Shown piece after piece: positions 215 through 54,882 of a DNA stretch of 64,000 bases (position 1 is its first letter; the number at the start of each line of letters is the position of its first letter). The stretch covers positions 141,226-205,225 of the forward strand of contig CALXZL010000002.1 of the NCBI GenBank assembly GCA_944393215.1, read 5' to 3'. The translations under genes and the position numbers were made by a program. The DNA is from an uncultured Alphaproteobacteria bacterium (GTDB lineage Bacteria; Pseudomonadota; Alphaproteobacteria; RF32; CAG-239). The notes below the pieces were generated by a model that saw nothing but the letters and a program-made list of their open reading frames with translations, ran no database searches and had not been told where the DNA came from.

Positions 215-2464
215 TCACAATTGAATCAATCCTCGATTATGAAGAAATTTGCGCAAGAGTTCCACTCTGTTTTTATAATCCATTTTTTTAGCATGATCGT
301 AAAAACCATCCACGACAAAAGGTTCATTATCTTTATCATACAAAACGAAGGCATCATTTTTACAAACAAGATAACAATCTTTATAAATCAATCGCTGTCC
401 ATAATCATTCCGATCAAGATGATCCGAATCAACAATTTTCAAATAAGGTAAAAAAGTACTATGAGGAAACATGCGTGATCCTTCCAAAACCAGGTACAAA
501 AACGGATTTTCTTCCTGTTTTTCATTACTTAATTTTCCTTGTCCTCCGGAACGAAATTCCGGATATTTAACATAGTAATAACACCACTTATATTGGTTTT
601 CCATCTCGCACCGGTCCATAAAATCCTGCGCAATTTGACCTAAAGAATCATTAGTAAACGGACCTTTTTTGAGAAGTTCTACTAAAATTCTATGTGTATC
701 TTCAAAACCGGTATTGGCACTTTTGTGAAATAATGAATTCCATGCAGAATCATTTTTGGGCGTTCCGATCTGATATCTACCGTTTGCTTCTTTCTGCCCA
801 TAAAAATCAATCGACATCAAAGCACAACTTATTTTATCCAAATCACACTTAAACAAGGAAATAAAATTATCGGCAAGATCCAAATTATCTAAACCAACAA
901 TACTAACCTGCCCCTTCAAACGCGGATGATCCTCCAACTTATATAAATTTTCTTGCAACTCGGGCTTTTCAGACAAAAGTTTTATTTTTGCTTTTTCTTC
1001 CTCAATCTGATGCGTATTAAAACCGTTTTTCGAATTCGGAAGATTATCCAAATTTCCGAACCGAATAATATAATTAACTTGTTTTAAGATAGCAGGAATA
1101 CGGCTTCTGTTGCGTCTTTCTGCCAATTCATCATCCGAATTGGAAATCAAATTATGAACAATACGAATTCGGCGAACAAAATCATCATATGTAATTTTAT
1201 CTTTATGCATCAAATAAAAAACAATAGCATATAAAAGCACCATCCTATTCAACGGAAATTGGCGCACATTTCCATTCGTCGGAGAAAAAGAGAACAAACA
1301 ATCTTCAAAAATATCAATTTTACCGGAAACAACAATTTTTTGACCATTAGTCTCATAGTTTCCCTTATCAGAAGAAATGTTGGTCATAAAAGAATTTAAA
1401 AATTCTTTAGGCGTTTGCTTATTATCCAACTCCCGCCAAACATCAAAACTATTTTCTAAAAAGAGAAGATTTTGTTTTGCAGATGCACAATCTTTAGAAA
1501 AATAGGATGAAATAAGGGTAAAATCATCGGCATCTGCTTTTCTCTGACCATATCTTTTGTAACCGATAATATCACAAATAAAACGAAAATAATTCAAAAA
1601 CAAATCATCAATAAGCCCTTTAAATTTTCCTTGCTCATCAATACAATATTTCCATAAAAGATCAGTCCAGTCTCCATCTATTTTTTTTATAATGTTTTCG
1701 GAAATTCTTTGATTATTTTCTTTATTTGTTTTTTGATCAACTTCCTTCAACTGACGTTCAAACTCGGCTTTAAATTGCTCAAAGTTGGTCAAAGGTTTGC
1801 CACGAGAGTTCATTTTAATGTAAAGATCATCGGTCAATCCCATTTTCTTCATGGGTAAGAAATAAAAGCTTATGTTTTTTAATTTTTCCCATAAACCGAA
1901 AACTTCTGCAAAGCGTTCATGAATAGCTTCCAACATCGTCAACATTGAGCTGATGGTCGGATCACTGTGCCAAGTTTTGTAAAACCAAGGTTGATCAATA
2001 ACGGCAGATTTAATATCTTGGGAAGAATATGGCAGATGAGAAATTAAGTCAGCACAAAAACATTTGGAAGAATAACGCGTTTCATAAGTAAATTTAGATA
2101 AGAAATCTCTTTCCTCGGGCAGCTTGTTTTTTCCGCTTTCAAGAGCATAAGCATTAGCGGCATAACAATACAAAAGGAAAAGCGTTGTCAACCTTTGTTG
2201 TCCGTCAAGAGGAGTCAAAATACCTTCGGCATCTATGTCCCCATAAATAAAATCAAGGCAAATCGAAGATTCTGTTACTGTTACTGCCTTATATAAAGAT
2301 TCTAAAAAATGTTTACGAACATTGGTAACCGTAATATTATCGCGTCCTTGAGCATAATCTCTTTGAATTTGAGGAATAACAATTTTTTGAATTTTGAGCG
2401 GTTGATCATCATCCGAAAAATCAGTATTAAAAATGTCGGGAAAGGAAAGTAATAAAGCAGACAT
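215..2464 (-). CDS. DUF262 (ParB-like/GmrS-like) domain protein, 749 aa. The C-terminal half has no recognisable His-Me (DUF1524) motif.
   Basis: N-terminal motifs IPQIQRDYAQGR and LDGQQRLTTLFLL are the DUF262 hallmarks (I-P-x-x-QR-x-Y-x-W and DGQQR-L-T). It sits in tandem with a second DUF262 gene on the same strand. Confidence 0.7.
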   Translation of the reverse strand: MSALLLSFPDIFNTDFSDDDQPLKIQKIVIPQIQRDYAQGRDNITVTNVRKHFLESLYKAVTVTESSICLDFIYGDIDAEGILTPLDGQQRLTTLFLLYCYAANAYALESGKNKLPEERDFLSKFTYETRYSSKCFCADLISHLPYSSQDIKSAVIDQPWFYKTWHSDPTISSMLTMLEAIHERFAEVFGLWEKLKNISFYFLPMKKMGLTDDLYIKMNSRGKPLTNFEQFKAEFERQLKEVDQKTNKENNQRISENIIKKIDGDWTDLLWKYCIDEQGKFKGLIDDLFLNYFRFICDIIGYKRYGQRKADADDFTLISSYFSKDCASAKQNLLFLENSFDVWRELDNKQTPKEFLNSFMTNISSDKGNYETNGQKIVVSGKIDIFEDCLFSFSPTNGNVRQFPLNRMVLLYAIVFYLMHKDKITYDDFVRRIRIVHNLISNSDDELAERRNRSRIPAILKQVNYIIRFGNLDNLPNSKNGFNTHQIEEEKAKIKLLSEKPELQENLYKLEDHPRLKGQVSIVGLDNLDLADNFISLFKCDLDKISCALMSIDFYGQKEANGRYQIGTPKNDSAWNSLFHKSANTGFEDTHRILVELLKKGPFTNDSLGQIAQDFMDRCEMENQYKWCYYYVKYPEFRSGGQGKLSNEKQEENPFLYLVLEGSRMFPHSTFLPYLKIVDSDHLDRNDYGQRLIYKDCYLVCKNDAFVLYDKDNEPFVVDGFYDHAKKMDYKNRVELLRKFLHNRGLIQL

Positions 2465-2493
2465 CAGTTATTCTCCTGTGTAAGAAAAATCTT

Positions 2494-4338
2494 TTACTTC
2501 AAATAAGGTTTAAGGATTTTGTGCATGGCAACAATATAGGCTTTACGATCTTTTTCACCCCAAAAATGAATTTGAGTATCTTTTGCCGGAGTATAAGATT
2601 TCAAAAACACCATTTGCGTACAAAACGGAATATAATTTCCCTCTCGAATTAATTTAATAACAATATTTCGCTTAACATCAAAAGCCGCATTATTAAGGGC
2701 GGCATTGTCGGCAACATTTAAAAGTGCCATGTTAGCAAGAGAGTGCATATTTTCCATCTTTCCCGGTCCGTTTAAAATATTAACAACCTTCGTTCTGATT
2801 TCCTCAAATTCAACTCCGGATAACTTCGGATTTTCAACAGCTTTTTTCATACGCTCAATCAATTCAACATTTTTAGGCGCGACCGTTTTAATAGAGAGAA
2901 TATGCTCGCTCACCCAAGAATGCCAAGCCTTAATATCGACCAAGCCTTTAGAATGTTGGGCATGAATATGCTCCAAACTCCAAACCACTTTATTTTTTTT
3001 GTTAAATTTAAATTTATCAAACGGAAATCTTTGCGATTGTTCTGCCAATTTGCGAACGGATTCAACATTAAATAACAAAAGCAAGCGTATGATTTTTTTA
3101 CAATCTTCGATTTTTTCATAGCTCAGCTCGGCATAATCTTGAAGAGTGTTAGGATCATTTTGAGTAATACGAATACTTTTTTTAATGGCATCATTTAGCT
3201 TAGATAAAAACTCCTTTTTGGTTTTATCTTTTGCCAATTTAAAAATATCTTGCAAGGATTTCTCTTGAGTATAAATGAGATAACCTATTTTATGATACAG
3301 TTCATGATCTTCATACCAATCTTTAAGCATCCAAAAAGCATTCTGAATTTCCAACCACAGCTTTGCCAAAGAGCAGGTGTGGCTATCAAATTTAAAAAAT
3401 GTAAAATATTTATCTCTTTCGTTAGGTTTCTTTTCGGCAATCAAATCCAAAAGCAATTCAATTTTGGTAGAATAATTGCTGCTGCAAGAATTAGATAAAA
3501 AATACCAAAAAGATTCATTATGCAGCTCTTGCTCAATCATATCCCATTGCAGCGCAATTTCTTGTTTGGTCAAATCGGGCAACGAATTTTTCCGTTCACC
3601 GGAATAAAGCTCATGCGATTTACTCAAAAACATAGCCTTAACCAGCTCGGCAGAGGTAAGCGGAATTTTTCCGATATTCAAGCGAGCGAACAAAGATATG
3701 GGATCCTCATTTTGGTCAACTTCATACCAAATAACCTGAACATAGTTTTCAAAATATGTCTTGAGCGTCTGCGGATCACGATCATATTTTTCATCAGCAA
3801 ACCAACCTTTAATCGCATCATAGGCTCGCTTCATAAAATAAAAATCGATATTTTCAGTATATTTTGTATCATTACTCTGATCAATCTCTTCAAGAAATTC
3901 TTGAGATTTATCTCTGGTTTCATACGCAATGGAAAAAAGCGGATGAGGAGAAAAAGGAAGAACTCTGTTCAAATATTTATAAATCAGGAAAATGGTTGTC
4001 AAACGCTGTTGTCCGTCAACCACTTCTAACAACTTGTCTTCTTTTCTTTTAACGACAATCGGCTGCAAACAATAACTATTTTCACCGTTTTGATAAACGT
4101 CATTAAGCAAGCGAATAACATCATCTTCCCCCCATCGATATCCGCGCTGATAGGAAGGAATAAAAAATTTCCCCTTAATTTCAGCAACTTTTATTGTATC
4201 CAAAACAATATTATGAGTAAACATCTTAACCATCCCAAACCAAGAAATAAGAATTATAATATGGACAAATATCACAAACTTCAAGGGCAAAATTCTAAGC
4301 CGTTTGAAGCGTTGCAAGCAAAGGTTCTTTTTTGGCAC
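2494..4338 (-). CDS. GmrSD-family protein (N-terminal DUF262 plus C-terminal DUF1524 His-Me finger nuclease); putative modification-dependent type IV restriction enzyme. The true start is probably the internal Met near 4233 (MVKMFTHN...).
   Basis: IPSYQRGYRWGEDDV and VVDGQQRLTTIFLI give the DUF262 domain. The C-terminal KVVWSLEHIHAQHS followed by conserved Asn residues (LLNVADNAALNNAAF) gives the DUF1524/HNH-like motif. Confidence 0.75.
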   Translation of the reverse strand: MPKKNLCLQRFKRLRILPLKFVIFVHIIILISWFGMVKMFTHNIVLDTIKVAEIKGKFFIPSYQRGYRWGEDDVIRLLNDVYQNGENSYCLQPIVVKRKEDKLLEVVDGQQRLTTIFLIYKYLNRVLPFSPHPLFSIAYETRDKSQEFLEEIDQSNDTKYTENIDFYFMKRAYDAIKGWFADEKYDRDPQTLKTYFENYVQVIWYEVDQNEDPISLFARLNIGKIPLTSAELVKAMFLSKSHELYSGERKNSLPDLTKQEIALQWDMIEQELHNESFWYFLSNSCSSNYSTKIELLLDLIAEKKPNERDKYFTFFKFDSHTCSLAKLWLEIQNAFWMLKDWYEDHELYHKIGYLIYTQEKSLQDIFKLAKDKTKKEFLSKLNDAIKKSIRITQNDPNTLQDYAELSYEKIEDCKKIIRLLLLFNVESVRKLAEQSQRFPFDKFKFNKKNKVVWSLEHIHAQHSKGLVDIKAWHSWVSEHILSIKTVAPKNVELIERMKKAVENPKLSGVEFEEIRTKVVNILNGPGKMENMHSLANMALLNVADNAALNNAAFDVKRNIVIKLIREGNYIPFCTQMVFLKSYTPAKDTQIHFWGEKDRKAYIVAMHKILKPYLK

Positions 4339-5182
4339 ATAAATCCAAAACCGTTTGCCCGTACCGGTTTTTTAACTTAACATCCGCTCCAAATTTTATC
4401 ATCTGGCGGATAATTTTGGCGGCGGCATCCAGATCCGGCTTCTGGAACAATATTTTTCCAAAGCCGGAATTGCTTCCGACAGGAAAATCTTTGGCATAAG
4501 TCTGACAAAAATACATCAAGGCGGTATTTCCGATATAGTCCTGACGATTTATATCTAGCCCATGTTGAATAAAAAGCCGGAAACAATCATCAATATAATC
4601 CTGATTCCAATCACCGGAACAACTAAGCATTTTCGGATTAAGAATAAAAGCCACAAAAAGAGGATAAACATCCGAAGCCGTCATCACACAGCTTTTAACA
4701 TAATCCGGTTTTGCAGAAAAGCGACAAATCATTTCGACGGCTGTTATGCCGTTATTATCGGGAAGATTTGGATTCGCACCATATTTTAAACACACGGGAA
4801 TAATGTCATAATTAAACCGATTATAAGCAGCATAATGCAATATATTGTGCCCGTAATTATCCTTTGCCAGAATATCACTGCCGTTGCTCAACAAAGTTTG
4901 CAACATTTGTTCAAAAGCATCCGGTGTTGCCGGAGAACGTCCGAGAGCAATCAAAGCCGTTTCCCCGTCTCTGCCTTGTTTCCGGACATCCGCACCATGA
5001 TCAATCAAAAAACGCACCACGGCAGGATCTTTATTAAAACGGCAAGCAGAAATCAAAGACGTTGAACCGTCGGAACCAATCTCATTAACATCTACCCCTT
5101 CCGATAACAATTCAATCAAATCCTTTGTGCCTTTTTTCATAGAGCAACAACGTATAAACGTAACGATTTTTGGTTCCGACAT
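4295..5182 (-). CDS. Ankyrin-repeat protein, 295 aa, with at least 4 ANK repeats
   Basis: Repeated G-(A/S)-D/N-V/P-N...DG.T.L..A motifs: GVDVNEIGSDGSTSLISAC, HGADVRKQGRDGETALIAL, YGANPNLPDNNGITAVEMI, FGADVKLKNRYGQTVLDLC. It is on the same strand as the DUF262 genes and 62 bp upstream of them. Confidence 0.8.
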   Translation of the reverse strand: MSEPKIVTFIRCCSMKKGTKDLIELLSEGVDVNEIGSDGSTSLISACRFNKDPAVVRFLIDHGADVRKQGRDGETALIALGRSPATPDAFEQMLQTLLSNGSDILAKDNYGHNILHYAAYNRFNYDIIPVCLKYGANPNLPDNNGITAVEMICRFSAKPDYVKSCVMTASDVYPLFVAFILNPKMLSCSGDWNQDYIDDCFRLFIQHGLDINRQDYIGNTALMYFCQTYAKDFPVGSNSGFGKILFQKPDLDAAAKIIRQMIKFGADVKLKNRYGQTVLDLCAKKEPLLATLQTA

Positions 5183-49973: not shown

Positions 49974-52817
49974 CTAAGCATCCTCCCCGTCAGTTTCAAC
50001 TTCGGGTTCGCTTACACCGCTGTCTTCCTCCGTATCGGCAACACTTTCACCCAAGACTTCGCTTCCGGTTTCTTCCTCAAGCTCTTCTTCATCTTCGGCA
50101 TCGGCATCAAGCCAGGTAACGGAAACAACTTTTTCGTCTTCGGCGGTTCTGAACAAGATAACACCTTGGGTTTTACGTCCGGCAATACGGATGTCGGAAA
50201 CCGGCATACGAATGAGTTTACCACCGTCGGTTACCATCATAATCTGATTATCATCTTCAATCGGGAACGAGCTGACAATTTCTTTATTACGAGCAGACAT
50301 TTCCATATTGGCAATACCCTGACCACCGCGACCGGTAACACGATATTCATAAGATGACGAACGCTTACCGTAACCGGTAGAAGTAACCGAAAGAATAAAT
50401 TGTTCATTTTCCTTCATCTTCAAATATTTGTCTTCCGGTAAAACATCCAAATTAATACCGGTATCAGCTAAAGCAATTTCGTCTTCGCTGACATTTCTTT
50501 CTGCCATTAAGCGTTTAACGGCGGAACGAACACGAGAATATTCATCACGTTCTTCGGTCGAGGCTTCGCTATGGTTCAAAATAGACATGGAGATAACTTC
50601 ATCGCCGTCGGCTAATTTGATACCGCGAACACCGGTAGAATTACGACCGACAAAGACACGAACTTCGGTAACCGGGAAGCGGATGCACTTACCGCTACGA
50701 GCTGCCAACATAATATCATTATCTTCTTGACAGATACGAACGTTAATCAGTTTGTCGCCTTCATCAAGTTTCATCGCTATCTTACCGTTTGATTGAACAT
50801 TGACAAAGTCCATCAATGAGTTACGACGAACATTACCTTGCGATGTGGCAAACATAATCGACATATTCTCGCATTCTGCCTCATTCTCCGGCAATTTCAT
50901 AATTGTGGTGATGGTTTCACCGGCATCAAGCGGCAAGAGGTTAATGAAGGGCTTACCCTTAGAGGTCGGAGAACCCAAAGGCAATTTATAAACCTTCATC
51001 TTATAGACCAAACCTTTGGAAGAGAAGAAGAGTACCGGTGTATGTGTTGAAGCCACAAACAGACGAGAAACAAAATCTTCTTCTTTGGTCGCCATACCGG
51101 ACTTTCCTTTACCGCCGCGTTTTTGTGCTTTATAGGCATTCAAAGGAACGCGTTTGATATAGCCGGCATCGGTAACCGTAACCACCATTTCTTCACGTTG
51201 AATAAGAGATTCAATATCGGTATCATATTCAATATCTTCAATTTTGGAACGACGCGGTGTGGCATATTCATCTTTAATGGCAACAAATTCATCACGCATA
51301 ATACCATAGAGTTTTTCGCGCGATGCCAAAATAGAGAGATATTCTTTAATATCTTCACCGATACCGGTCAATTCTTCATGAATTTTATCTCTTTCCAAAC
51401 CGGTCAAGCGTTGCAATTTCAAATCAAGAATAGCTTTGGCTTGGGCTTCGGAAAGACGATAAGTACCGTTTTCAACTTTTCTGTCCGGCTCATCAATGAG
51501 TTTAACCAAAGGCTCGACATCACCGGCGGGCCAAGCTTTGGCAAGCAAAGCATCTTTAGCTTCTTGCGGATTGGAAGATGTGCGAATAAGATCAATCACC
51601 GGATCAATATTTTCCACTGCAATCGCCAAACCAACCAAAACGTGCGCTCTGTCACGCGCTTTATTGAGTAAGAAAATGGTACGACGACGAATAACCTCTT
51701 CACGGAAGGAAACAAAGGCAGAAATAATGTCTTTGAGGTTCATCATCATCGGGCGTCCGCCGTTAATGGCGAGCATATTCATACCAAAGCTGGTTTGCAG
51801 TTGGGTAAACTTATAAAGCTGATTTAAAACCACATCGGCTTGGAAATCTTTTTTGATTTCGATAACCACGCGCACACCGTGACGGTCAGATTCATCACGG
51901 ATATCGGAAATACCGTCAATTTTCTTTTCCTTCACAAGCTCGGCAATTTTGGTCACCAACATAGATTTATTAATCTGATAAGGAATTTCATGAACAATAA
52001 TGGCTTCCTTATCTTTTCTCAGTTCTTCAATCGTGCATTTAGCGCGCATCACAACCGAGCCGCGACCGGTGAGATAAGCCGACTTTGCACCGCTATAACC
52101 CAAGATAAGACCACCGGTCGGAAAATCCGGTCCCGGAACAATATTAATTAAATCTTCAATTGAAATCAGCGGATTATCAATATAAGCGCAGCAAGCATCC
52201 AACACTTCACCCAAGTTATGCGGCGGAATATTGGTTGCCATACCGACGGCAATACCGTTGGCACCGTTGACGAGCAAGTTTGGATAAGCGGCAGGAAGGA
52301 CTGTCGGCTCTTGTAAACTTTCATCATAGTTGGGCATAAAGTCAACGGTATCTTTTTCAATGTCATCAATAAGGGCGTGAGCAACTTTTGCCAAACGAGC
52401 CTCGGTATAACGCATGGCAGCCGCACTATCACCGTCCATAGAACCGAAGTTACCTTGACCGTCAATAAGAGGTACGCGCATGGAGAAAGGCTGCGCCATA
52501 CGAACCATAGCTTCATAAACAGAGCTATCACCGTGCGGGTGATATTTACCCAAAACATCACCGACGATACGGGCAGATTTTCTGAAAGGCTTATTATAAT
52601 CATAGCCGTTTTCATAAGCCGAATAAATAATACGACGATGCACCGGCTTCAAACCATCACGCACATCCGGCAAAGCACGGGAAACGATAACGCTCATGGC
52701 ATAATCAAGATAAGAGCGTCTCATTTCATCACAAATGCCGATAGGAGAAATATCCTGACCGCTGTTTGGATTAACAGCCTCGGCAACCGTGTCTAAATTT
52801 TCGTTTTCTTCACTCAC
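49974..52817 (-). CDS. gyrA: DNA gyrase subunit A
   Basis: It has the N-terminal [11 protein letters not shown], an active-site Tyr region ([10 protein letters not shown]), the QRDR-like motif [10 protein letters not shown], a C-terminal beta-pinwheel with a GyrA box, and an acidic tail. Confidence 0.97.
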
Positions 52818-53129
52818 TTTTTTATCCTTTTTAGATTACAAACTGGCAAAAATATAGCAAATTTATCTTTACCCCTCCAGTAAATATTAGAACTTACACA
52901 CATAAAAAAGCATAAATTCCTCTCTACGACCAAAAAAACCGCCTTATTTTTGATTTTCGTTCAAATTCAGATTTTAAAAGTTAACATCAAAATGCTCCAA
53001 AAGCCAAAAAAACGCCTTACAACTAAATATAGTTATCAACATACTTTTATTAATTATTGCTAATTTTTATATAATTGCTATAGTAGATGAATAGAGCTTA
53101 ACAAAAAAATAAGGAAAATCAAATGGTTA

Positions 53130-53139
53130 CCCCCCCCCC
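53130..53139 (+). repeat. Homopolymeric C10 tract in an AT-rich intergenic region, 109 bp upstream of the O-acetyltransferase start codon
   Basis: ggttaccccccccccgagatt is read directly from the sequence. It lies inside a short upstream ORF (ATG 53123) whose frame depends on the tract length. Confidence 0.9.
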
Positions 53140-53247
53140 GAGATTTTAAGCGACATATATCCTTCTTCAACAACAGTCATAAAAAGACACAGTTTGTCTG
53201 TCTCCGAAATGATTTGCGAATACTTAAGCAATTGGACGGAGGCTTGA

Positions 53248-54030
53248 ATGAAAAAATATAGAATGTATAAAATCTTATCCTTAGTAACCTTAGGCAAGCT
53301 TCACAAAAAATATAAACGTAAATATCGCGAAGAAAAAAATTCTTTTATTTTGCAGAGAGAAGAAAAACATAAAAATCAACTAAAAGAAGCCCAAATATTT
53401 GCAACAAAACAATACAACCGAAAACAACGCGAAGAAAATAACAATAAAATTATTTTAATTGATGAAAATGGAAATGAAAATCTTAGTGATTATGTGGAGG
53501 AATTAAATATCTCATTTTGTGGTAAAAATTCTACTGTAAAGATAAATTTTAATAGCAAATTTAATAATGCTAAAATAATAATTTTTGATAATTCCTTGCT
53601 CTCGATTGGGAAAAATTTTAGCAACAACCCACCTCTAACTATTTATTGCTGCACTCCTAATCAGTTAATTACCATTGGGAATGATTGTATGTTTTCTTGG
53701 GACGTTACCATCCACAATACCGATCACCATGCCATAACATCGGAAACCAATATTATAAATACATCATCTTCATTGACTATCGGAAATCATGTATGGATAG
53801 GACAAAATGCAACTATTTTAAAAAATTCCTACATTCCTGATAACTCAATTATTGCCGCAGGAGCCATTTACACATCGTCAAGTTTCAAAGAAAAAGATGT
53901 TTCTACAAACACACAAAACAAAGGTTATATTTTTGCCGGAAATCCTGCCAAATGTGTAAAAACAGGTGATTTTACCTGGCATCGAGAAAATTGCCAAAAA
54001 TTAATGGAAGAACATCCCGAATTCAAATAA
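53248..54030 (+). CDS. Left-handed beta-helix (hexapeptide-repeat) acetyltransferase with a basic N-terminal extension of about 90 aa; sugar O-acetyltransferase-like
   Basis: Hexapeptide repeats are present: IGNDCMFSWDVTIHNTDHH, IGNHVWIGQNATILKNSYIPDNSIIAAGAIY, and GNPAKCVK. A GGAGG RBS precedes the start. Confidence 0.75.
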   Translation: MKKYRMYKILSLVTLGKLHKKYKRKYREEKNSFILQREEKHKNQLKEAQIFATKQYNRKQREENNNKIILIDENGNENLSDYVEELNISFCGKNSTVKINFNSKFNNAKIIIFDNSLLSIGKNFSNNPPLTIYCCTPNQLITIGNDCMFSWDVTIHNTDHHAITSETNIINTSSSLTIGNHVWIGQNATILKNSYIPDNSIIAAGAIYTSSSFKEKDVSTNTQNKGYIFAGNPAKCVKTGDFTWHRENCQKLMEEHPEFK

Positions 54031-54075: not shown

Positions 54076-54882
54076 TTGTATAAATGGATATTTATGATGA
54101 CCGATAAACAGCAGCTGATTGATGAAGCCATTAATAAAATTATAGAAAAAGCCGGCAGTTCTCAAATACAATCCGATATAGCCTTGGATGAAGAACAGCT
54201 TGAATTGCTGTCTCAATTAAATATCTTCTGCGTCCAACAAGTTTTAGACGATGAAGAAGTCAAAAGAGATCCGCGCAAAATCGGATATAAAACCAATCAG
54301 GAATTTAAAACCGCCCTGGTTGCCCTATGCTTAAGCCGTTCACTGATAAATCCGAGAGCACCTAAAAATTATAACAAAGAATATTTTGATGCCAATATCA
54401 ACGTAGAGACCTTAGAGAACAACATCAAAAACATCACCTTCAAAAACATTGAAGAAAAAGAAGTTGATAAAGCTCTGAATATTGAACTTGTCTGTGATTG
54501 GATGATATACCGAGACAAAAACGGCAAAGGAATAAGAGCCTTAATGGATGCCAAAACGCTGCATCAAGATTTAACCGACTATCAAAAAGGCGGTGATCCG
54601 GTTTATGAATTTGCCCGATTTGAACGCAAATTATATGAAAAGAAACAAAGCAAAGAAATATTTAGCAAAGAAAGCGCACAAGAAGCATTTCGCAACACGA
54701 TAGTTCAACAAGTTGCCGCCGAAATAGCCAAGCAGCAAATTGCCTCGGGGCAAAATCCCATGGAATTGGTCAATTTACTGTTTGCCCCGCAAGATTATAA
54801 CTACGCCATCCAAAAAATGTTGGATAAGCCGATATCTACTCCGCTGATTGAACACAAAAAAAAGAAAAAAAAGAAAAAATAA
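54076..54882 (+). CDS. Hypothetical protein, 262-268 aa, ending in a poly-lysine tail (HKKKKKKKKK) encoded by an A8-G-A8-G-A6 tract
   Basis: The ORF has no recognisable domain. The C-terminal homopolymeric-A coding tract is 54856..54883. A bidirectional terminator follows at 54891..54925. Confidence 0.5.
   Translation: MYKWIFMMTDKQQLIDEAINKIIEKAGSSQIQSDIALDEEQLELLSQLNIFCVQQVLDDEEVKRDPRKIGYKTNQEFKTALVALCLSRSLINPRAPKNYNKEYFDANINVETLENNIKNITFKNIEEKEVDKALNIELVCDWMIYRDKNGKGIRALMDAKTLHQDLTDYQKGGDPVYEFARFERKLYEKKQSKEIFSKESAQEAFRNTIVQQVAAEIAKQQIASGQNPMELVNLLFAPQDYNYAIQKMLDKPISTPLIEHKKKKKKKK

Follow-up and report, generated by a model that had tools for sequence, protein, structure and literature searches.

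The window analyzed in this study is a stretch of 64,000 nt from the assembly of an uncultured alphaproteobacterium of the CAG-239 lineage (GenBank GCA_944393215.1, contig CALXZL010000002.1), and the element of interest within it is a run of ten cytosines (C10) in the leader of an O-acetyltransferase gene. We found that this tract is hypermutable in nature. Because its length differs among otherwise identical strains, the tract is very probably a phase-variation switch, and the locus is very probably a simple sequence repeat (SSR) contingency locus of the well-known general kind that turns genes on and off. The tract lies inside a short upstream open reading frame (uORF). The mechanism that we favor, with modest confidence, is that tract length would set the reading frame of the uORF, whose translation would be coupled to a masked start of the acetyltransferase gene; lengths of 3n+1 nt would give low expression, and lengths of 3n and 3n+2 nt higher expression. 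The rivals to this reading are, in order of weight, polarity mediated by Rho, a neutral mutational hot spot, a translation-independent effect in the 5' untranslated region (UTR), assembly error, which is unlikely, and altered promoter spacing, which is essentially excluded.

The two features at the center of the analysis are the following:

53130–53139, + strand: poly-C tract C10, read as CCCCCCCCCC and called hypermutable.
53248–54030, + strand: left-handed beta-helix (LbH) O-acetyltransferase of the NeuO/OatWY type, 260 amino acids (aa), identified by Pfam Hexapep and PDB matches.

A C10 homopolymer upstream of an LbH acetyltransferase gene had been reported in an original prediction made from the letters of the window, and it is real. 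Two details of that description needed correction. The GC content, given as about 30%, is 38.8% for the window and 36.7% locally, and the gap between the tract and the acetyltransferase ATG, given as 109 bp, is 108 nt. Its ten nucleotides exceed the length of about 7–8 from which a G/C homopolymer is expected to be hypermutable. The tract is the sole run of G or C of at least 8 nt in the window; the runner-up is one C7 (25795–25801), in frame within a putative ATP-dependent Zn-protease gene. About 0.006 C10 tracts are expected per window under a model of independent, identically distributed bases, and dinucleotide-preserving shuffles contained a mean of 0.13 matches to C9, compared with the 2 overlapping matches seen in the window. 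The leader containing the uORF and the tract was found once in a copy search of the 64 kb, and a repeated or mobile element was ruled out on that ground. A minus-strand ORF of 56 aa with a poly-Gly end (53127–53297), which overlaps the start of the acetyltransferase gene, was set aside as mechanical.

Natural variation of the tract was determined from contigs found by exact-protein look-up in the metagenomes of several studies, each encoding the same 260-aa enzyme or a variant at least 98% identical to it. Allele counts refer to 13 independent same-species metagenome contigs, with the window counted together with contig L001. These contigs carried six tract alleles:

C10: window/L001 and L003.
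C9: L004, L005, and L114.
C7TC: L002, L006, L008, and L009.
C8TC: L007.
C9TC: L100 and L103.
C8ACTC: L010.

Comparison of the flanking sequences showed that the tract was often all that distinguished two contigs. L002 and L007 (C7TC versus C8TC) aligned over 3521 nt with 0 substitutions and 0 indels outside the tract, and there were 0 differences outside the tract in 3967 nt aligned between L003 and L005 (C10 versus C9) and in 1172 nt aligned between L004 and L010 (C9 versus C8ACTC). Likewise, the tract was the sole difference between L007 and L008 over 1975 aligned nt. In the whole-locus alignment, variants with one C more or less shared one haplotype. Because tract length varied on every one of three flanking haplotypes, we conclude that the mutation is recurrent. 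Besides the tract, the 125 nt between the start codons of the uORF and the gene contained just one polymorphism, a G/A change that turns the TGA stop into TAA. The original prediction had made the case for a switch depend on variability of tract length, and what was found was six alleles in 13 contigs, representing all three reading frames, with the tract as the sole difference over up to approximately 4 kb.

Sequencing or assembly errors at a homopolymer could in principle produce such length differences, since homopolymers are error-prone and the data consist entirely of metagenome assemblies, some of low coverage. Three observations argue against this explanation. Identical alleles recurred across independent samples, studies, and assemblers; the C7TC, C8TC, C9TC, and C8ACTC alleles are substitution variants and not length miscalls; and no other indel was seen in flanks of up to 4 kb. 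Those flanks hold many A and T runs of 7–9 nt (A7–A9 and T7–T9), none of which varied between the compared contigs, and homopolymer miscalling is therefore insufficient as an explanation. We consider assembly error very unlikely.

The leader between the promoter and the acetyltransferase gene contains the following features:

53057–53084, + strand: predicted sigma-70-type promoter (promoter scan), consisting of TTGCTA, a 16-nt spacer, and a TG-extended TATAGT.
53103–53109, + strand: A7 run between the predicted transcription start and the Shine-Dalgarno sequence of the uORF, upstream of the latter.
53110–53125, + strand: ribosome-binding region of the uORF, with UAAGGA at 53110–53115, a 7-nt spacer, and ATG at 53123–53125.
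53123–53149, + strand: leader uORF in its short-frame C10 state, MVTPPPRF plus TAA at 53147–53149.
53140–53247, + strand: leader segment in which two of the three frames are free of stops, evaluated with dinucleotide shuffles.
53245–53247, + strand: stop of the 3n+2 frame, TGA in the window; other strains and the sister lineage have TAA.
53259–53261, + strand: TAG that ends the 3n frame, 14 nt within the acetyltransferase ORF.

Transcription is predicted to start near 53091, and the tract starts 46 nt past the conserved −10 element, approximately 45 nt into the transcript. The promoter block, TTGCT...TTGCTATAGT, is kept in a sister lineage (P0003, contigs L016 and L018), while the flanking sequence diverges. 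The A7 run is also polymorphic, being A7 in the window and L001 and A8, or A8 minus the following T, elsewhere; its indel is the single one outside the C tract between the window and L010. The original prediction had offered altered promoter spacing as an alternative role for the tract, and poly-C promoter-spacer switches are known, as in Bordetella fim and Neisseria opc. Here, however, a single promoter-like element is conserved, and it ends 46 nt before the tract begins; the tract therefore does not lie within a promoter spacer. The promoter scan found no + strand hexamer pair flanking the tract, and a weak minus-strand site (53170–53143) adjoins the tract but does not flank it. An effect on the spacing of −35 and −10 elements is thus essentially excluded.

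The consequences of tract length for the uORF are as follows. A tract of 3n+1 nt gives a uORF of 8 codons that stops 98 nt before the gene; a tract of 3n+2 nt gives one of 41 codons whose stop directly adjoins the acetyltransferase ATG; and a tract of 3n nt gives one of 45–47 codons that ends at the TAG 14 nt within the gene. The original prediction was borne out in that the uORF starting at ATG 53123 stops after 8 codons with C10, at TAA 53147–53149, and would run to the TGA at 53245–53247 with 11 C. It erred in describing an ATGA overlap of this stop with the acetyltransferase start, because the sequence is TTGAATG and the stop abuts the ATG. It also overlooked C9 and C12, so that two frames, and not one, reach the gene. 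The 3n state was the commonest among the 13 contigs (8 contigs, compared with 3 for 3n+1 and 2 for 3n+2), and the 45-aa ORF of the 3n form has been annotated by gene callers in L002, L004, L005, and L006. The 108 nt that follow the tract contain four stops (53147, 53180, 53210, and 53225), all of them in the single short frame. At least two open frames occurred in 429 of 20000 dinucleotide shuffles (2.1%).

The possibility that the uORF encodes a functional micro-protein was rejected. A homologue search with the 45-aa peptide found none beyond this species, and substitutions between lineages had no codon-position bias in any frame. These results indicate that, if the uORF matters, it is the act of translation that matters and not the product. 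The tract itself encodes Pro-Pro or Pro-Pro-Pro, depending on its length.

Two related lineages differ in whether they have this leader. In the sister lineage, whose enzyme has 73% aa identity, both leader and tract are retained, with C8 in L016 and C12 in L018; one of these is in the abutting frame state and one in the overlap state. Tract alleles across the two lineages span C7 to C12. The sequence GGAAAATCAAATGGTTAC followed by at least 7 C was identical in 16 of 16 leader-bearing sequences from the two lineages, and the adjoining upstream sequence was approximately 50% identical. The block of Shine-Dalgarno sequence, ATG, and tract amounts to 24 nt that are perfectly conserved between the lineages, and the frame architecture of two open frames and a single short frame was kept despite divergence at approximately 16% of leader positions. 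The third lineage (P0002, contigs L011–L015; enzyme 70% identical) lacks the whole leader segment of approximately 165 nt, including uORF, tract, and hairpin, and AT-rich promoter-like sequence directly joins GGAGGCTTAAATG. Its Shine-Dalgarno site is predicted to be free and unstructured, and it provides a natural "constitutive" comparator. Scans of Joint Genome Institute (JGI) metagenomes with the conserved leader core and with the Shine-Dalgarno/ATG/tract block both gave no match, and the best match in a Genome Taxonomy Database (GTDB) genome scan with the acetyltransferase profile was 37% identical.

RNA folding predicted two hairpins in the leader:

53185–53199, + strand: hairpin P1, AGACA, a 5-nt loop, and UGUCU, within the best-conserved leader core (53170–53205).
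53200–53243, + strand: hairpin P2, in which GUCUCCG (53200–53206) pairs with CGGAGGC (53237–53243), predicted to sequester the acetyltransferase Shine-Dalgarno sequence.

The sole substitution in P1 between lineages falls in the loop. The acetyltransferase Shine-Dalgarno sequence, GGAGG (53238–53242), lies within the 3' arm of P2 in the minimum free energy (MFE) and centroid folds of both the leader and the local segment, and the anti-Shine-Dalgarno arm falls in the best-conserved leader block. The local P2 hairpin has a predicted stability of −14.1 kcal/mol (z = −2.0) in the window and −15.0 kcal/mol (z = −3.1) in L016 of the sister lineage. In the consensus fold across lineages, a 73-nt stretch, no pair is broken; 11 of the 13 substitutions are unpaired and the remaining 2 keep the pair. 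The predicted unpaired probability of this Shine-Dalgarno sequence is 0.003 at every tract length from C6 to C13, compared with a median of 0.29 for 22 other Shine-Dalgarno-like sites in the window, and the C tract itself is predicted to be mostly unpaired (probability 0.7–0.85). An Rfam scan of 52750–53350 found no credible RNA family, which argues against a known riboswitch or leader. A predicted hairpin that masks the Shine-Dalgarno sequence and has its other arm in the uORF favors translational coupling. The coupling suggested in the original prediction is likewise strengthened by the conserved uORF start and the two open frames.

A direct effect of tract length on the RNA fold was rejected, because the predicted fold was unchanged from C6 to C13; any effect must therefore act via the reading frame. 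The same result bears on the idea that the tract acts through the 5' UTR without translation, by affecting elongation or pausing, mRNA stability, or factor binding, or that RNA polymerase slippage blurs the frames. The tract does lie within the transcribed leader, homopolymers of at least 9 nt can give transcriptional slippage, and this explanation can be likened to the case of Moraxella uspA1 and uspA2, which have repeats in their 5' UTR. Against it, neither the predicted structure nor Shine-Dalgarno accessibility changes with tract length, and the conserved Shine-Dalgarno/ATG block and the frame-specific distribution of stops are left unexplained. We give it a low probability.

In the mechanism that we infer from these features, slipped-strand gain or loss of a C would place the uORF, if translated, in a new reading frame. 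In the 3n+1 state, represented by C10 in the window, ribosomes would stop 98 nt ahead of the gene. In the 3n+2 and 3n states, they would traverse the whole leader and end at the acetyltransferase start codon or 14 nt beyond it. The hairpin, with its other arm in the uORF, would lock the Shine-Dalgarno sequence of the acetyltransferase gene and limit initiation, and only read-through ribosomes would open the hairpin, re-initiate at the acetyltransferase start, or do both. The 3n+1 state would thus be low or OFF, and the 3n and 3n+2 states ON. The outcome would be stochastic, heritable, and reversible variation in the O-acetylation of a glycan that probably lies on the cell surface. The weakest part of this scheme is which way the switch works, because read-through ribosomes could instead occlude the start.

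The same switch could also work via Rho. Here the 3n+1 state would expose approximately 100 nt of untranslated leader with a C-rich Rho-loading site, Rho would end transcription ahead of the acetyltransferase gene, and read-through translation would protect the transcript. The frame architecture fits this explanation equally well, and Rho attenuation that depends on a uORF is a well-established phenomenon. Rho binds unpaired C-rich RNA by preference, and the tract is largely unpaired in the predictions. Rho-dependent termination underlies some phase-variable switches (reviewed in PMC12360218). However, the rest of the leader is AT-rich and in part structured, the 7–12 nt of the tract fall below the typical size of a Rho-utilization (rut) site, and an initiating or terminating ribosome would cover the tract. 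Rho polarity also has no need for a Shine-Dalgarno-sequestering hairpin, yet the hairpin is conserved. We regard Rho polarity as improbable, with some weight of its own.

The link that the original prediction drew between this gene and a family of phase-variable acetyltransferases held up as direct similarity to NeuO and OatWY. The left-handed beta-helix repeats of the enzyme match Pfam PF00132 (Hexapep; E = 6.2e-7, 29.3 bits versus a cut-off of 27) and are preceded by a Lys/Arg-rich N-terminal extension of approximately 65 residues. The best PDB match is the polysialic-acid O-acetyltransferase OatWY (2wlc; E = 5e-15), covering the C-terminal half only. NeuO (3jqy), likewise a polysialic-acid O-acetyltransferase, matches with E = 2e-14, aligned over residues 56–253 at low sequence identity. 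Residues H161 and W183 align with the catalytic residues of NeuO, His147 and the acetyl-CoA-associated Trp171 (PMC3046976), and both are invariant among the homologues. None of the NCBIfam equivalogs (WbbJ, maltose and galactoside O-acetyltransferases, Vat) was matched at its cut-off, the best being WbbJ with 44.9 bits versus 243 and the others falling far short of theirs. Because no capsule or sialic-acid context was found among the annotated ORFs of the window, the enzyme is described as related to the NeuO/OatWY family and is not classed as a polysialate O-acetyltransferase. Homologues of approximately 40% identity share the N-terminus that begins at 53248, indicating that this ATG is the true start and that the uORF is not part of the enzyme. 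An N-terminally extended acetyltransferase was rejected because the in-frame stop (TGA/TAA) is conserved and the homologues share the start at 53248.

Repeats of other types occur at more distant homologues. In homologues of approximately 39% identity (P0004, P0006, and P0007), a (TA)n repeat lies directly 3' of a TTGACT −35-like hexamer. L104 and L105, two samples that encode identical protein, have repeat numbers one unit apart, which looks like an independent promoter-spacer switch. The (TA)n loci are L104 (60–107), L105, L106, and L108. Repeats within −300 to +90 of the start were found in 4 of 80 still more distant homologues from reference genomes: G10 and (CATA)7, both within the 5' coding part of Gastranaerophilales genes, and C8 and (AAAAAT)3, both upstream. 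The homologues from Gastranaerophilales/Melainabacteria have G10 or (CATA)7 less than approximately 60 nt into the coding region, or C8 approximately 70 nt upstream (L035, ~330–340; L032, ~2894–2921; L055, ~2795), and these are candidate contingency loci in gut Melainabacteria. The occurrence of such repeats suggests that this acetyltransferase family was put under repeat control several times independently. Several short contigs (L017, L019, L101, L102, and L104–L106) start within or just 3' of the acetyltransferase leader or repeat region; these starts might be assembly breaks from within-sample repeat heterogeneity.

A number of observations weigh against a frame-setting switch coupled to the acetyltransferase start. 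GGAGG is a strong Shine-Dalgarno sequence at ideal spacing, and the acetyltransferase might initiate independently. Ribosomes in the overlap frame could occlude the start, and the ON/OFF assignment would then be reversed. The full-leader fold is no more stable than shuffled sequences (z = −0.2), and no two-sided covariation was found in the two lineages available, in which stems are invariant or have one-sided changes. The window has no polysaccharide genes (capsule, sialic-acid, or lipopolysaccharide [LPS]) among its annotated ORFs. The excess of repeats among the 80 distant homologues is marginal, with 4 seen compared with approximately 1.4 expected from the background rate at the same loci. 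Finally, all three frames occur at appreciable natural frequency and interruptions of the C7TC type point to partial decay; the same pattern of alleles would be expected of a weak or neutral effect.

These last points lead to the possibility that the tract is a neutral hot spot, a homopolymer hitch-hiking in a non-coding leader whose uORF and hairpin are chance features. All three frame classes occur naturally (8, 3, and 2 contigs), the interrupted alleles resemble decay, the uORF peptide has neither a coding signature nor homologues, and the open frames and the hairpin each have p values of only approximately 0.02–0.04. On the other hand, point mutation should erase a neutral run of C7–C12, yet no part of the leader is better conserved than the tract and the uORF start between lineages that have diverged at approximately 16% of leader positions. 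The lineages also share both frame outcomes, with one frame stopping early and the other two terminating at the start of the gene, and homologues have independently gained other repeat types. We therefore assign only a small share of the probability to a neutral tract.

An extension of the frame-setting switch is offered more tentatively. The locus could be a three-state switch in which the repeat touches neither the regulated gene nor its promoter but resets the frame of the uORF, giving graded OFF, ON1, and ON2 states. One frame would abort early, and the other two would bring ribosomes to the masked start with either an abutting stop or a 14-nt overlap. Stalling at Pro-Pro or Pro-Pro-Pro that depends on elongation factor P (EF-P) could add a further layer. 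We consider three graded states possible rather than probable.

One further gene may belong to the same transcript:

54094–54882, + strand: conserved hypothetical gene, 262 aa, downstream of the acetyltransferase gene in all three lineages.

Its product has no Pfam domain, and its homologues are widespread in metagenome-assembled genomes (MAGs) of gut Alphaproteobacteria. The gene may be co-transcribed with the acetyltransferase gene; its membership in the switch is uncertain. Its lysine tail is encoded by the A-rich run AAAAAAAAGAAAAAAAAGAAAAAA at the 3' end (~54855–54882), and the product ranges from 258 to 262 aa between strains. Some strains (L002, 4696–5211; L004, 3872–4435; L006; L007; and L114) have a gene for an FHA-domain protein of 171–187 aa inserted between the hypothetical gene and ssb, which is absent from the window between 54882 and 54940. 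The neighbors of the locus are the housekeeping genes gyrA, ssb, uvrA, DsbD, rpoD, and dnaG. Elsewhere in the window, two tandem genes with GmrSD N-terminal domains (restriction of modified DNA) adjoin an ankyrin-repeat protein gene (215–5182), and the region 25637–28693 encodes a putative ATP-dependent Zn protease, a seven-transmembrane (7TM) protein with an inactive-transglutaminase domain, and a "sugar-transfer associated" ATP-grasp enzyme.

Good documentation of SSR contingency loci comes from a handful of cultured pathogens, and very little of it from uncultured gut commensals. The present locus demonstrates that public metagenome assemblies alone suffice to reveal repeat hypervariability on an otherwise identical background. 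The capsule O-acetyltransferases to which this enzyme is related modulate how E. coli K1 is recognized by phages and by the immune system. If the proposed mechanism is true, the locus is a concrete example of a repeat that acts through a leader ORF and not through the gene or its promoter. Should such a design prove general, repeats embedded in uORFs would form a class of contingency locus that has been overlooked in uncultured gut bacteria, and surveys limited to ORFs and promoter spacers would miss them. A full-text search of the literature on uORFs and slipped-strand phase variation, with incomplete coverage that makes it weak evidence of novelty, found no direct precedent. Placement of a repeat in a leader ORF is unusual, and it is plausible that the mechanism would be a new variant.

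SSR contingency loci that control glycan-modifying enzymes are well known (PMC11868660; PMC8355987; PMC5084427), and such loci exist in Alphaproteobacteria, as in Bartonella (PMC11466379). The closest likeness is to neuO of E. coli K1, carried on the CUS-3 prophage, which is phase-variable by slipped-strand changes in heptanucleotide repeats (PMC3046976; PMC13001214). Both loci encode an LbH O-acetyltransferase with the catalytic His and Trp and a basic N-terminal extension, and both have a 5' repeat. However, the AAGACTC repeats of neuO lie inside its coding region; the gene is switched ON only when their number is a multiple of 3, and that number also tunes activity. In the present locus the repeat is a C homopolymer in a separate uORF, the sequence of the enzyme is never changed, and no prophage or sialic-acid gene context was found in the window. 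OatWY, the capsule O-acetyltransferase of Neisseria meningitidis serogroups W and Y, has the same LbH fold and catalytic motif, but the match is limited to the C-terminal half.

The lex2A/lex2B locus is a partial precedent, in that a repeat in a short upstream ORF governs an adjacent glycan-modifying enzyme; it differs in having a tetranucleotide repeat and one ON frame out of three. To our knowledge, no leader hairpin that sequesters a Shine-Dalgarno sequence has been described for lex2A/lex2B. The GCAA repeat of Haemophilus influenzae lex2A is phase-variable (PMC6479036). The poly-G/C genes of Campylobacter, Neisseria, and Haemophilus resemble this locus in having a mutable G/C run of at least 7 nt that is polymorphic in length among near-identical strains and a surface-modifying target. 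In those genes the tracts are mostly in the regulated ORF or a promoter spacer, whereas here the tract is in a leader ORF, and the classical hosts are pathogens, whereas the host here belongs to an uncultured gut commensal lineage. The repeat of a promoter-spacer switch (Bordetella fim, Neisseria opc and porA, and H. influenzae hif) is placed between the −35 and −10 elements or overlaps them, which is not the case here; the distant homologues in L104–L106 do have that arrangement, with (TA)n. Leaders of the erm type and coupled operon genes share with this leader a uORF with its own Shine-Dalgarno sequence, a downstream Shine-Dalgarno sequence paired inside the uORF, as predicted here, and a uORF stop at or overlapping the downstream start (−1 or +14, in two of the three frames). 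Control in erm-type leaders depends on a ligand or an antibiotic-induced stall, whereas the control proposed here would be exerted by heritable frameshift mutation.

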